Assembly: GCA_022450525.1 (NCBI GenBank)
Contig: JAKUQA010000006.1
Span: 912-64,911 of the forward strand
DNA from: Dehalococcoidia bacterium
GTDB taxonomy: Bacteria > Chloroflexota > Dehalococcoidia > Lucifugimonadales > UBA6952
Length of the DNA: 64,000 bases
Reading direction: 5' to 3'
How positions within the stretch are numbered: the stretch's first letter is position 1; the number at the start of each line of letters is the position of its first letter. The translations under genes were made by a program, and so were the position numbers. Of this stretch, positions 11,655-63,724 are shown in pieces. The notes beneath the pieces were generated by a model. That model did not search any database. It saw nothing but the letters and a program-made list of their open reading frames with translations, and was not told the origin of the DNA.

Positions 11655-11764
11655 TTTGATCTCTCAATAATTTATAATGTAATGAATATCGTAGTGTCTT
11701 TGACTATTAAATTCATTATAAAAATTTTCGATAAATAAAAGTATTAAATATTTGGGAGTAAGGT

Positions 11765-17404: not shown

Positions 17405-17803
17405 TTATTCCCCATGTGCATTTCGTATAGATAATTCAATTTCTTCTAGTGAGGTGCCTGGTCCAAAAACCCCTTTTACTCCTAATGAGTTTAGGGCTTC
17501 TTTATCTGATTCAGGTATAATACCACCGACGAGTATTTTTACATGATCCATTTCTTTTTTATACAGACAGTCAAAAAGTTCGGCTACAAGTTCTAAATGC
17601 GCTCCTGATAATATACTTATTCCAATGATATTTGCGTCCATTTTTGCAGCTAATTCTGTTATTTGTTCAGGTGTTTTTCTAATTCCAGAAAATTTCGTTT
17701 TGATGTTTTGCTCTGACAAATATCGAGTAATAACCTTAGCTCCGCGGTCATGTCCGTCAAGTCCCGGTTTGGCAATTAGTACTCTTATTTCATTATTATC
17801 CAT
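17405..17803 (-). CDS. B12-dependent acyl-CoA mutase, small cobalamin-binding subunit
   Basis: 132 aa. GLDGHDRGAKV (DxHxxG cobalamin His-ligand motif), SILSG and GGIIP motifs. Confidence 0.88.
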   Translation of the reverse strand: MDNNEIRVLIAKPGLDGHDRGAKVITRYLSEQNIKTKFSGIRKTPEQITELAAKMDANIIGISILSGAHLELVAELFDCLYKKEMDHVKILVGGIIPESDKEALNSLGVKGVFGPGTSLEEIELSIRNAHGE

Positions 17804-48766: not shown

Positions 48767-49540
48767 ATGATCAACATAGATTTAAATGGGAAAAAAGGTA
48801 TAGTTTTTGGTGTTGCGAATCATAGAAGTATCGCTTGGGCTATATCACAAAAACTTTTAGATGCAGGAGCTGATGTTACAATTGCTTATCAAAATGAACG
48901 CTTCAAGTCTGGAGTCGAAAAACTCATAGACGGTTATAGTAATGCATCGTTAGAAGAATGCGATGTTTCAAGCGATGATTCGATTACAGATTTATTTTCT
49001 AATTTAAAAGATAAATATCAGAACATAGACTTTTTAGTTCATAGTATTGCTTTTGCTCCTAGAGAAGATTTAGCTGGTGATTTTTCTGAAACTTCTCGAG
49101 AAAGTTTTAATATAGCTTTAGAAATAAGCTCTTTTTCATTAATTTCTTTGGTCAATAACGCAACAAAATTAATGAAAAATGGCGGGAGTATTCTTGCACT
49201 TACTTTTCAGGCATCTCAATCTGTATACCCAGGATACAATGTCATGGGTGTAGCCAAAGCTGCTTTAGAAAATGAAGTAAAACAACTAGCAGCTGAATAT
49301 GGTTCTAGAGAAATTAGGGTTAACGCGCTTTCACCAGGTCCTATGGATACGTTAGCTGCTAGAGGCATTCATGGATTTATAGATATGAAAAAGATTCACG
49401 CTGAAAAAGCGCCTTTAAAACGAAATATCACACATGACGAAGTAGGTAATGCAGCATTATTTTTATGTAGTGATTTATCGACAGGTATCACTGGTACAAT
49501 TTTACCTGTTGATGCTGGCTATCACATAATGGCTGTATGA
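48767..49540 (+). CDS. fabI: Enoyl-ACP reductase (NADH), FabI
   Basis: 257 aa. GKKGIVFGVANHRSIAWAI start, HSIAFAP, YNVMGVAKAALE (Tyr/Lys catalytic pair), SPGPMDTLAA. Confidence 0.88.
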   Translation: MINIDLNGKKGIVFGVANHRSIAWAISQKLLDAGADVTIAYQNERFKSGVEKLIDGYSNASLEECDVSSDDSITDLFSNLKDKYQNIDFLVHSIAFAPREDLAGDFSETSRESFNIALEISSFSLISLVNNATKLMKNGGSILALTFQASQSVYPGYNVMGVAKAALENEVKQLAAEYGSREIRVNALSPGPMDTLAARGIHGFIDMKKIHAEKAPLKRNITHDEVGNAALFLCSDLSTGITGTILPVDAGYHIMAV

Positions 49541-50100
49541 GTACTAAGAAACTAAAACTTAAACGTATTCCCGAGGGTAGATCTGGTCATTTTTCTATAA
49601 TTCATCGTTATCACCCTCATCTATACTTCAATGGTAAATATATCCGCTACACAGGCGCTATGTTAATAGACAATGAAACAATGTGGATGAGTGATGGCCC
49701 TGAGGAACGTTTAACAATGTCCAGTGCTGTTCGGTGGTGTCCAAATAATGCAGATGTATTAATTGGAGGGTTAGGGTTAGGTATTGTTCCACGATGGTTA
49801 GAACAAAAAGCTAATTCTATAACGATAGTTGAATTTTCAAGAGATGTAATTAATCTTGTTTATGATTATATTAAAACAGCTAAGATGAAAATAATTCATG
49901 ATGATATAAATAATTATTTAGATAAAACAGAAGAAAAATTTGATTTTGTGTATTTAGATACTTGGCCAGATTTAGACGCCAGTCGATTAGATGAAATTAC
50001 TCACCTAAAAAAATTATCAAAAAATGTTTTAAAAAACGAAAACAGTCGTGTAATTTGTTGGGGTGAAAATGTTGTAAGGAAGGCAGCAACAAAGGTTTAA
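49537..50100 (+). CDS. Spermidine-synthase-like SAM-dependent methyltransferase-fold protein
   Basis: 187 aa. VLIGGLGLGIVPRWL (glycine-rich loop), ITIVEFSRDV, IIHDDINNYL, FDFVYLDTWPD. Confidence 0.5.
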   Translation: MSTKKLKLKRIPEGRSGHFSIIHRYHPHLYFNGKYIRYTGAMLIDNETMWMSDGPEERLTMSSAVRWCPNNADVLIGGLGLGIVPRWLEQKANSITIVEFSRDVINLVYDYIKTAKMKIIHDDINNYLDKTEEKFDFVYLDTWPDLDASRLDEITHLKKLSKNVLKNENSRVICWGENVVRKAATKV

Positions 50101-50993
50101 TTAGTATTTTTGCGTTCTGATTGTCTTGCTCTTCGAATTTCACCAGCTCGTGCCAGAATAGCTCTATTAGATTCATTAACTTCCATATATTCCTTACGCC
50201 ATTCGTGTGTGTGCCATGTATAAGGAGTTTGTATGGATGTTCTAGGAAACTTAGCTTCTTCCAAAAGAGTTAATGCCATCTTCGTAATTTCAATTTGCAT
50301 TTCTGAGTCATATGGCAATCCAACTGGATTACCAAGAGGAAAATCTGAAAATATAAATCTTGGCACTCCACACTGTTCAACTATGTCTCGTGCTGACCCT
50401 ATTATTACTGTAGGAATATTATTTTTTTCAAGATGTCTTGCAATCAAACTCACGGTTTGATGACATACAGGTCACAAAGGAACTAGTAGAGCAACGTCAA
50501 CTTGGTCTAGTTGCATATAATTCAGTATTTCTGGAGCAACATTTTGATTAGTTTTCCTTTGAGAATAATCAGTAGGAGCACCATAAAAGTTTTTTGAAAT
50601 TGATTTTATTACTCCTTCTTCTACAAGAGTTTTAAGATGATCTAATGGGAAAAATGTACCCAAATCATGAGTGTGCGTTGCTTTTTTATCCCATGATCTG
50701 TCCATTGTATAAAGTGCAGGAGGAGTAGGTGTTGTCGGAAAGTGATAAGTAGATCCGATTTGTAATATGCCAGGATCAAAATCAAGTGATATATCAGGAT
50801 TTGGTAAAGATGCAGTAGTTACAAGGCCAACATTACATTCGGACAAAGGTTTAGTTAATTTTTGAAAAGGTACGTGGTCATTTACAGCCCATCGATAAGG
50901 GACTTCATAACCTTGTGCCGCATAAAAATGTCGTGACTTATCAATATATGAAACAGCTAATCTGTAGGCAGGATTAAATTGCTCATCATTCAT
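50097..50993 (-). CDS. GrdB/PrdB-family (glycine/sarcosine/betaine/D-proline reductase protein B-like) selenoprotein, Sec encoded by in-frame TGA at 50472-50474
   Basis: Track ORFs 50472-50993 and 50097-50453 share one frame and are separated only by TGA plus six sense codons (PVCHQT). The joined 298-aa product reads QVDVALLVPL-U-PVC-HQTVSLIARHLEKNNIPTV...FPLGNPVG. This parallels the Sec region I recall from clostridial GrdB (DAVILTST-U-GTC-TRCGATMVKEIERAGIPVV...PLGNP). There is no SD before the GTG of the second ORF, and a SECIS-like hairpin follows the TGA. Confidence 0.8.
50443..50461 (-). promoter_or_regulatory. Candidate bacterial SECIS hairpin
   Basis: On the mRNA: UGA, 10 nt (CCUGUAUGUC), then AUCAAAC-CGUGA-GUUUGAU. 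This is a perfect 7-bp stem with a 5-nt loop containing GU. The lower stem is extendable (G-C, U-A, U.G) past a C/U mismatch. The loop lies about 20 nt from the UGA. Confidence 0.6.
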
Positions 50994-50995
50994 AA

Positions 50996-51964
50996 TTAAT
51001 CTAATCCATATAGTTCTTTAATTTCAGGCACATCATGAAGTTTCAGAGCATTGATTGCATTTTTCCAACAGATTTTATCTAATACTTCATCTTTCCATGG
51101 GAGGGAGAAAAAGAAATTAGTATAATTTGTTAGGTTTAATAGAGGATATGCACTACCAAAAATAAATCTATCTGCTATACCCCAAGAACTATTCACTGCT
51201 TTAACCCAATCTTCAGTACCTAACATAGTCAAATAAGCATCAGGAGATACATATATATTATCTCTTCGCATGCTTGCAATAGTAATAATTTCTCTTATGT
51301 ATGGATAATGGCCATGGCCACAAATTATTGTTAAATCTGGAAAATCATGTGCTACTTGATCAATATATTTAGGATGTGCATAGTCAATATTTAGTCCTCC
51401 TAATGGTCCAGATGTTTGGGGGCTAATTGCTATATCTAAATCAAGGCATTTTTGATATATAGGGTAAAGACGTGGGTCTGCTAGATTATCAGCATAATTT
51501 GGACCTCTACCAGGTTCAATAAATACAACTTTAAATCCTAGTTTTTTACAACGTTCTATTTCTTCTAATGGATCATGAAAAACACCCCATGCATCAATAC
51601 CTGCACATGCTACAAACCTAGCAGGATTTTCCTTTTGGATTTGTGCTTGTTCATCATTAGAAGTTGTTCGTTCTGGAAATACACTATGACCTAAAGTCAT
51701 ACCTTTGTTCATTCCTGATACAGATACGGCTGTTGTTACTCCTGCCTCGTCAAGATCTCGAAAGAATGATTCTATAGAACCATCTTTAAATGCATTTATA
51801 GAATCATAAGCTCCACTATGCTGTGTGCGCTGTCTAAAGTAGTCGGATTGTGAAGCAGTTGTTAATCTACATCGCATATCAATAATTTTTGGTCTTTCAG
51901 ATTTAGGTAGCATATTTGATCCACCACCCATGTCTTGGAATGCTAAAGTATTTTCATTTACCAT
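50996..51964 (-). CDS. Amidohydrolase_2-like TIM-barrel protein (atypical metal-ligand positions)
   Basis: Start set at ATG 51962-64 (MVNENT), behind AAGGTGGGG. The track ORF is 21 codons longer. ICGHGHYPY and RFIFGSAYPL resemble amidohydrolase_2 (ACMSD/LigI type). The usual N-terminal IDxHxH reads IIDMRCRL instead. Ends 2 nt before the selenoprotein gene. Confidence 0.5.
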   Translation of the reverse strand: MVNENTLAFQDMGGGSNMLPKSERPKIIDMRCRLTTASQSDYFRQRTQHSGAYDSINAFKDGSIESFFRDLDEAGVTTAVSVSGMNKGMTLGHSVFPERTTSNDEQAQIQKENPARFVACAGIDAWGVFHDPLEEIERCKKLGFKVVFIEPGRGPNYADNLADPRLYPIYQKCLDLDIAISPQTSGPLGGLNIDYAHPKYIDQVAHDFPDLTIICGHGHYPYIREIITIASMRRDNIYVSPDAYLTMLGTEDWVKAVNSSWGIADRFIFGSAYPLLNLTNYTNFFFSLPWKDEVLDKICWKNAINALKLHDVPEIKELYGLD

Positions 51965-52142
51965 TTTCCCCACCTTTTCATATTTTTGAATGTGTTCATA
52001 GTACAGCGATATAGAAACTTGGTACAAGCATAAAAGTCGTTCTTATTTAATATATGAATAAAACTGATATTCAATCTTGTTATTCGCACGATAGATCAGC
52101 TATAATTTTATAGTTTTAATCAATAATATTGTGGAGAATAAA

Positions 52143-62746: not shown

Positions 62747-63724
62747 ATGAAGATTGCTATATATGGAGCTGGTGCTATAGGTGCTTTATTAGGAGCTAAA
62801 CTTCATCTTAGTGGTGAAGACGTAACATTAATTGCGAGAGGTCCTCATTTACAAGCAATGCAAAAATCGGGTGTAACAGTTATTGAATCTGGAGAAACAT
62901 ATATCTCGCACCCTTCTTTGGCTGAAAATCCTAAAGATATTGGCCCAGTAGATTATTTATTTATCACTGTGAAAACCAACGGATTGGAAGCAATAGCAGA
63001 AAATATACCATATCTTTGTGATCAAAATACTGCTGTTGTAACTGCTCAAAACGGAATTCCGTGGTGGTATTTTTATGGTTTAGATACTAAATTTAAAAAT
63101 ACGAAACTTAATTCTCTAGATCCCAATAATATTATACATTCGAATATAGAAAATAAGAGAATAATAGGATGTATAGTTTATCCTTCAGCAATTATTTCTG
63201 AACCAGGCGTTGTAACTCATCTAGAAGGAGATCGATTCTCTTTAGGAGAACCTGATGGTAGTATTTCTGAAAGATGTAAAAACCTTTCTGCAGCATTAAT
63301 TAAAGCTGGTTTTAAAAGTCCTGTTAGACCAAATTTACGAAATGAAATATGGGTCAAATTAATGGGGAATATAGCTATGAATCCTATTAGTATGATAACG
63401 AGAGGAAGTTTAAAAGATATTACTGAGAATGAAACTACAAGAGAATTTGCTCGTAATGTTATGTTGGAAGCAGAAACTGTAGCAACAACCTTAGGTGTAA
63501 AAATGCAAGTTACAGTTGATCAGAGACTTGAAGGTGCAAATAGTGTTGGAGATCACAAAACATCAATGTTGCAAGATTACGAACAAGGTCGACCAATTGA
63601 ATTAGAAAGTATTATTGGTTCCGTTGTGGAACTTGCAGATATTTTACATATACAGGTTCCCAATATAAAAACTCTATATGGAATTTCAAAAATGCTTGCC
63701 ATAAAGTCCGGTATTTATAAGTGA
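62747..63724 (+). CDS. 2-dehydropantoate 2-reductase (ApbA/PanE) family oxidoreductase
   Basis: 325 aa. MKIAIYGAGAIGALLGAKL Rossmann start, TVKT, ..HKTSMLQD motif of the ketopantoate reductase family. Confidence 0.7.
   Translation: MKIAIYGAGAIGALLGAKLHLSGEDVTLIARGPHLQAMQKSGVTVIESGETYISHPSLAENPKDIGPVDYLFITVKTNGLEAIAENIPYLCDQNTAVVTAQNGIPWWYFYGLDTKFKNTKLNSLDPNNIIHSNIENKRIIGCIVYPSAIISEPGVVTHLEGDRFSLGEPDGSISERCKNLSAALIKAGFKSPVRPNLRNEIWVKLMGNIAMNPISMITRGSLKDITENETTREFARNVMLEAETVATTLGVKMQVTVDQRLEGANSVGDHKTSMLQDYEQGRPIELESIIGSVVELADILHIQVPNIKTLYGISKMLAIKSGIYK

Follow-up and report, generated by a model that had tools for sequence, protein, structure and literature searches.

In Escherichia coli and Moorella, SelB-GTP with Sec-tRNA(Sec) binds the loop of a selenocysteine insertion sequence (SECIS) by its C-terminal winged-helix domain while UGA is in the A site, and thereby out-competes release factor 2, so that selenocysteine (Sec) is incorporated. 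Here we describe a hairpin that follows an in-frame UGA in a 64,000-nucleotide (nt) stretch of DNA, hereafter the window, from the Dehalococcoidia contig JAKUQA010000006.1. The minimal element of E. coli fdhF is active at 11 nt from the UGA, compared with 10 nt for the start of the window hairpin; the fdhF stem has a bulged U, and the stem of the window is without one. Comparison of the sequence with its homologs makes us highly confident that this hairpin is a bacterial SECIS (bSECIS) within the coding sequence of a gene for a PrdB/GrdB-like selenoprotein. It has a defined structure, an exact spacing from the UGA, covarying base pairs and a strict association with TGA, not TGY, at the codon concerned.

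The gene also has described relatives. A 2005 paper on the Sargasso Sea gives 'Proline reductase PrdB' (UxxC) as the third most abundant selenoprotein family, with 42 genes (PMC1088965), and a 2008 paper places it (UxxC, pfam07355) among the top Global Ocean Sampling (GOS) families, where it has 235 Sec sequences and 110 Cys sequences (PMC2398784). In the ocean data of these sources Sec forms are more numerous than Cys forms, and a family SECIS consensus with amino-acid covariation was not found in the searched passages of either. The window gene belongs to the same Pfam family as these marine genes, has the same UxxC Sec motif and comes from the same kind of source, marine plankton; there is no substantive difference. 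It is likewise homologous across the Sec region to clostridial PrdB (TIGR04483) and to GrdB, GrdF and GrdH (TIGR01918), all of which have UxxC, but differs from clostridial PrdB in scoring under the equivalog cut-off and in having no prd partners within 10 kb. It appears to be an ordinary member of a known selenoprotein family carrying a routine bSECIS, and it raises no new biological question; both family and mechanism were already known some 20 years ago.

The mRNA, transcribed from the minus strand of the window, reads CCU UUG UGA CCU GUA UGU CAU CAA ACC GUG AGU UUG AUU GCA AGA around the element. The first-pass annotation had described a perfect 7-bp stem, AUCAAAC/GUUUGAU, closing the 5-nt loop CGUGA at 10 nt past the UGA, and every base and coordinate of that description is correct. 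All seven pairs are Watson-Crick pairs, the encoded peptide is H-Q-T-V-S-L-I, and the loop G and U, which had been placed at about 20 nt from the UGA, lie 19 and 20 nt past its A. As quoted in PMC13188914, the bSECIS model allows 3-9 nt for the loop, 4-16 bp for the stem and 16-37 nt from UGA to loop, and asks for a G at loop position 1 or 2, usually with G or U next, and for a minimum free energy (MFE) of -7.5 kcal/mol or below; the corresponding values in the window are 5 nt, 7 bp, 17 nt, C-G-U-G-A and, for the extended fold, -9.6 kcal/mol. The likeness to the bSECIS of the Zhang and Gladyshev model and of fdhF includes a position within the open reading frame (ORF) directly 3' of the UGA, a 5-nt loop with G-U at loop positions 2-3 and a 7-bp stem. 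It does not extend to stability, as the window stem is A/U-rich and weak, and in sequence the element does not resemble other SECIS elements, as is usual for bSECIS. The MFE fold of 61 nt, to which the value of -9.6 kcal/mol belongs, includes the 7-bp stem together with a lower helix; the 19-nt core hairpin has -4.4 kcal/mol, and -7.1 kcal/mol with the 3-bp lower helix.

The significance of the hairpin rests on comparative data and not on the thermodynamics of a single copy. For the comparison, a metagenome collection was scanned for TGA forms with the codon pattern [A/P]-L-TGA-P-V-C-H-Q-[T/S] (at least 120 loci), and a collection of species-representative genomes was scanned for the same motif with either TGA or TGY (at least 120 loci, TGA and Cys forms mixed). 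A motif filter dropped six loci, five of them chance matches and the sixth a true homolog, L114, with Cys where the filter expects Arg. Deduplication left 181 TGA forms, all distinct, and 38 Cys forms among the matches listed; the counts below refer to these, and all align without gaps. All of the loci listed from the metagenome scan are true homologs in which the frame is open across the TGA, and at least 181 distinct homologous genes keep TGA at the Sec codon with a continuing reading frame. The spacing of the hairpin from the UGA is identical in all sampled homologs, in part by construction of the search pattern.

The complete 7-bp stem is found in 135 of the 181 TGA forms and in none of the 38 Cys forms (Fisher test, p = 2e-19, uncorrected for relatedness, as are the other statistics apart from the switch count). 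Six of the seven pairs are present in another 31 TGA forms, so that 166 of 181 have 6-7 bp, and in 12 of the 38 Cys forms. The MFE structure of the 19-mer is exactly the hairpin in 114 TGA forms and in no Cys form. The energy of the fixed hairpin has a median of -8.4 kcal/mol in TGA forms against -3.8 kcal/mol in Cys forms, despite the higher G+C content of the latter (a mean of 66% over the 60-nt segment, compared with 58%). The overall MFE of nt +3 to +45 was rejected as a discriminator in favor of the fixed-hairpin energy: it does not differ between Sec and Cys forms (-14.7 vs -13.7), because G+C is higher in the Cys forms. The Cys forms nearest to the window protein, five sequences at 55-58% identity, all lack the full stem; they have 3-6 of the seven pairs, different loops, and Thr or Ala in place of Val. 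A neighbor-joining (NJ) tree of the protein was built with the hairpin-encoded residues masked, and Fitch parsimony on this tree gives at least 13 switches between the Sec and Cys states. Thus, the Sec/Cys contrast is not a single clade split.

The loop and the pairs next to it separate the two classes most clearly. The loop is CGUGA in 115 of the 181 TGA forms, and its GU is present in 179 of them, compared with 11 of the 38 Cys forms. Residue +7 is always Val in TGA forms, where the Val codon supplies the GU of the loop and so accounts for this invariance, whereas Cys forms have T, M, S, I, L or A in place of Val. Codon +8 is AGU, UGU, GGU or GGA (Ser, Cys or Gly) in 175 of 181 TGA forms and mostly AGC or GCG in Cys forms. 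Pair 19-25 has a G that never varies among TGA forms and that 18 of the 38 Cys forms have as well. Selection specific to the SECIS is visible in the loop and in the two pairs nearest to it, 18-26 and 19-25. One genome locus, L224, is a Cys form with TGT that keeps the CGUGA loop, the AGU codon and six of the seven pairs; from its sequence it looks like a recent Sec-to-Cys conversion with a relic SECIS.

The comparison of orthologs proposed in the first-pass annotation bore the element out, as TGA homologs keep the stem at the same position and show compensatory changes. RNAalifold, run on 86 sequences with mutual identity below 85%, predicts only the SECIS hairpin, with three covarying pairs. 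Pair 14-30 (U-A or C-G) joins the codons His CAU/CAC and Ile AUN/Val GUN, and pair 17-27 (A-U or G-C) joins Gln CAA/CAG and Leu UUG/CUG. At pair 18-26 (A-U or U-A) the alternatives are Thr ACC...Ser AGU and Ser UCC...Gly GGA, and compensation here takes place via two amino-acid changes. Paired cells make up 89.5% in the proposed structure, compared with 26-36% when the 3' partners are slid, and none of 500 shuffles matches the observed covariation score. A subfamily with H-Q-S-V-G-L and the stem AUCAGUC/GACUGAU (L122, L123, L125, L133, L142, L190, L194, L205, L216, L222, L223, L230 and others) has the A-U pair flipped to U-A by a coordinated change of Thr to Ser and of Ser to Gly (GGA), with the RNA pair maintained. 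The lowest A-U pair is broken (A.C) in 29 of the 181 TGA forms; it is thus dispensable, and the conserved core of the stem is 6 bp. The lower helix had been predicted to form past a C/U mismatch, and in the MFE fold it does so (U.G, G-C, U-A), but as a selected feature it was rejected: the Cys (UGY) and Ala (GCN) codons by themselves dictate its pairs 17-41 and 18-40, and pair 16-42 is unpaired in 38 of the 86 sequences.

The same nucleotides are constrained at synonymous sites, in agreement with the dual constraint of coding and structure that had been suggested for the hairpin. In TGA forms the third-codon entropy is 0.62, 0.85, 0.62 and 0.00 bits at positions 20, 23, 26 and 29, whereas four-fold sites of these forms have 1.72-1.73 bits in the spacer and 1.5-2.0 bits downstream of the hairpin. 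Cys forms have 1.3-1.7 bits at positions 20, 23 and 26, and 0.66 at position 29. The footprint on synonymous sites is confined to the hairpin and is found only in TGA forms. Furthermore, lying in the most conserved motif of the enzyme, the SECIS also constrains the protein, at Val +7 and at residue +8, which is restricted to NGU or GGA codons.

Some observations weigh against a SECIS at this position. The fold of the single copy is not significant, with z = -1.1 against dinucleotide shuffles, 31 of 200 of which fold as well, and the 101-nt context gives z = +0.5 against shuffles; we have not used single-sequence thermodynamics as evidence. The hairpin of the window is among the weakest of the family, only 21 of 181 being as weak as it or weaker. 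The scan patterns that gave the counts among the matches listed fix the codons of the 5' arm, and five of the seven pairs come nearly free with the peptide, CAY-CAR lying opposite YUG-RUN; that most of the stem is free in this sense follows from the 5-6 pairs kept by Cys forms. An Rfam search gave no match at E of 10 or below, and no Rfam model covers the element. Finally, a tRNA search, the gene table and Pfam on about half of the ORFs revealed no tRNA-Sec, selA, selB or selD in the 64-kb window, and the related loci (240 loci, 1.6 Mb) contained no tRNA-Sec according to aragorn.

An alternative that we consider improbable is that the hairpin has no function of its own and is a by-product of the conserved H-Q-T-V-S-L-[IV] motif. 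Cys forms, which need no SECIS, do have 5-6 of the seven pairs in 31 of 38 cases, and synonymous recoding of the window peptide gives at least five pairs in about half of the draws. The full stem, however, is what TGA forms have (135 of 181) and Cys forms, including those nearest to the window protein, do not, and only TGA forms keep pair 18-26 and the GU of the loop. These features are retained even at the cost of restricted amino acids and of rare codons, ACC being 11% of Thr codons and GUG 7% of Val codons in a window of 34% G+C, and the third-position entropy falls only in TGA forms. The contrast between Sec and Cys forms has already largely refuted this explanation. Set against controls, as the first-pass annotation had envisaged, the single copy is unremarkable: it belongs to the MFE fold, but all seven pairs also arise in 2.8% of 20,000 synonymous recodings drawn with the codon usage of the window, and the dinucleotide shuffles did not set it apart. 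A loose bSECIS-like hairpin of at least 7 bp follows 5.5% of the 2,619 TGA triplets of the window, or 0.76% if only Watson-Crick pairs are allowed, and the six ordinary TGA stop codons of the window have no bSECIS-like hairpin, even at 6 bp.

Somewhat less probable again is that the hairpin acts at the RNA level in a way that has nothing to do with Sec decoding, for instance by pausing ribosomes or through mRNA stability or attenuation. Any hairpin in a coding region can slow ribosomes, and nothing more specific favors such a role; on the other side, the hairpin tracks TGA and not TGY over the at least 13 inferred switches, it stands at a fixed 10 nt from the UGA, and its loop has the G-U typical of loops bound by SelB.

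That the TGA is a genuine stop, and the locus a pseudogene or split gene with a product of 173 aa and perhaps one of 118 aa from the GTG in the loop, is in our view very improbable. This is how the gene is recorded: ORF callers break it into 50472-50993 (173 aa) and 50097-50453 (118 aa), the second part beginning at GTG 50453, within the SECIS loop, and the two GenBank entries are hypothetical proteins, MCH2522590.1 with 173 aa and MCH2522589.1 with 118 aa, from a Dehalococcoidia (SAR202-type) metagenome-assembled genome (MAG). Yet at least 181 distinct homologs, drawn from many phyla, have the TGA at the same codon, the frame past it is conserved as protein and runs on from the frame before it, and the TGA codon aligns with the first Cys of CxxC; a pseudogene would not conserve its stop together with a covarying hairpin. 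Reassignment of UGA throughout the genome to Trp or Gly (genetic codes 4 or 25), with no special element needed, has a negligible probability, for although some gene callers put W at this codon in the relatives P0001, P0043 and P0063, the homologs have Cys there and not Trp or Gly, the rpoB and rpoC genes of the window are without in-frame TGA, and a reassigned code is excluded by six other window genes that stop at TGA and by a scan of the 64 kb for TGA-bridged frames in which only the PrdB-like gene was convincing. The other TGAs that bridge open stretches of at least 50 codons, at 63722-63724 (+), 17544-17546 (+) and 11664-11666 (-), have flanks that look like an ordinary stop and unrelated sequence.

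Returning to the bSECIS, the way in which it would act can be drawn by analogy with bacterial Sec decoding as known from E. coli fdhF and from work on SelB and SECIS in Moorella, from which SelB binding and the decoding step are inferred. With the ribosome at UGA-174, the stem-loop 10 nt downstream would still be folded just outside the mRNA channel, and its apical loop with the conserved G-U would be bound by the C-terminal domain of SelB. SelB would then bring Sec-tRNA(Sec) to the A site, so that the UGA would be read as selenocysteine instead of stop, and the product, of 298 residues, would carry the selenol/thiol redox motif U-P-V-C. The Sec machinery is assumed to be present in the source organism. 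A Pfam scan of 10 further ORFs of the window found no SelA, SelB or SelD; these ORFs encode, among others, an amidase, an Ldh_2-family dehydrogenase, a RecF-like protein, FtsK, methylmalonyl-CoA mutase, ABC exporters and EngA. Marine Dehalococcoidia MAGs are listed among the most selenoprotein-rich bacteria, and our search of the literature on SAR202 and selenocysteine returned nothing relevant.

A search of 5.8 billion proteins gave 1,910 homologs of the window protein, the full-length ones having about 295 aa. In these the segment C-P-V-C-H-Q-T aligns exactly with U-P-V-C-H-Q-T of the window, and by this alignment C-P-V-C and the predicted U-P-V-C are a classical Sec/Cys pair at a UxxC redox motif. 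Other homologs end at ...LVPL or have W at the Sec codon (the three relatives named above), which is TGA as handled by gene callers. Translation of 50993-50097 contains a single in-frame TGA, codon 174. Exact matches to the window protein sequences are present in hundreds of ocean assemblies, Tara among them, and a sequence search of the PDB with the window protein gave no solved relative.

The Pfam model GRDB (PF07355) gives 23.6 bits against a cut-off of 22. Its match covers window residues 29-171 and reaches model position 345 of 347, so that the model ends 3 residues before the Sec codon. This suggests that PF07355 was built from sequences truncated at the UGA, which may account for the weak scores of such proteins. 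The NCBIfam PrdB model TIGR04483 gives 98 bits, under its equivalog cut-off of 300, with window residues 43-261 aligned to model positions 20-235 of 238 and U174 near model position 151. Matches to TIGR01918, TIGR01917 and the GrdH and GrdF models are all under the trusted cut-offs, the GrdB-type models aligning across the Sec site, and the selenoprotein B family model gives 30.8 bits against a cut-off of 65.45. The coordinates of the features are collected in Table 1.

Table 1. Position in the window of the predicted selenoprotein gene, its recoding element and the adjoining gene
Feature	Positions	Strand	Basis or remark
PrdB/GrdB-like selenoprotein gene, complete	50097..50993	minus	298 codons, ATG at 50993, TAA at 50099-50097
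In-frame UGA, predicted to be read as selenocysteine U174	50472..50474	minus	first residue of the U-P-V-C redox motif
U-P-V-C codons, the UxxC motif of the selenoprotein B/PrdB family	50463..50474	minus	translation and homolog alignment
Spacer ccuguauguc, 10 nt, from UGA to hairpin	50462..50471	minus	sequence
SECIS stem, 5' arm AUCAAAC (codons cAU CAA AC-)	50455..50461	minus	sequence, fold, homologs
Apical loop CGUGA, G-U at loop positions 2-3	50450..50454	minus	sequence, homologs
SECIS stem, 3' arm GUUUGAU (codons aGU UUG AUu)	50443..50449	minus	sequence, fold, homologs
Optional lower helix, 3' side GCA, pairing with UGU 50465-50463 across a C/U mismatch	50439..50441	minus	MFE fold
Amidohydro_2 (PF04909) gene	50996..52027	minus	ends 2 nt upstream of the selenoprotein start

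The gap of 2 nt to the Amidohydro_2 gene makes it probable that the two genes are co-transcribed; Amidohydro_2 is not a conserved partner, as tblastn finds the pairing only in a locus from the same organism. Within 10 kb lie genes for Amidohydro_2, fumarase, SDR, PrpD, FtsH, GreA and RNA polymerase subunits, and neither a pyruvoyl subunit of the PrdA/GrdE type nor PrdC or GrdA was found over this distance. A 187-aa ORF (49537-50100, plus strand) converges on the selenoprotein gene, with 4 nt of overlap at the 3' end of the latter, and has no Pfam match. Across about 220 related loci there is no dominant neighbor family, the search for PrdA by HMM (hidden Markov model) not having covered all of them, and the largest neighbor 'clusters' were rejected as artefacts of antisense ORFs in G+C-rich DNA. 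Minor recurrent neighbors within 4 kb (loci L001-L240) are SDR, acyl-CoA dehydrogenase, family III CoA-transferase and enoyl-CoA hydratase, at 12-17 loci each. These minor neighbors hint at acyl-CoA metabolism rather than a prd operon.

Cys forms occur in aerobes, for example Bradyrhizobium and Rhodopseudomonas. Given this, the low equivalog scores, the lack of prd or grd partners nearby and the lack of a conserved neighbor, the window protein is probably not a D-proline reductase in function. Whether the planktonic and soil 'PrdB' selenoproteins as a whole are not D-proline reductases but a stand-alone UxxC selenol/thiol enzyme, working without a pyruvoyl subunit of the PrdA type, is a proposal for which we see the case as evenly balanced.

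In practice, the element gives a rule for the repair of annotations that would apply to hundreds of records: a TGA, 10 nt, and a stem of 6-7 bp closing a CGUGN loop in CHQ[T/S]V[S/C/G]L codons. The same 19 nt are both the most conserved peptide of the enzyme and a recoding signal, which makes them a clean textbook case of overlapping constraints on RNA and protein, and the contrast between Sec and Cys forms shows which nucleotides serve the peptide and which serve recoding. If the family is indeed a stand-alone enzyme, this would be a SECIS that lies in the catalytic motif and visibly steers the evolution of the protein, with Val +7 set by the GU of the loop and Thr/Ser +6 covarying with Ser/Gly +8.

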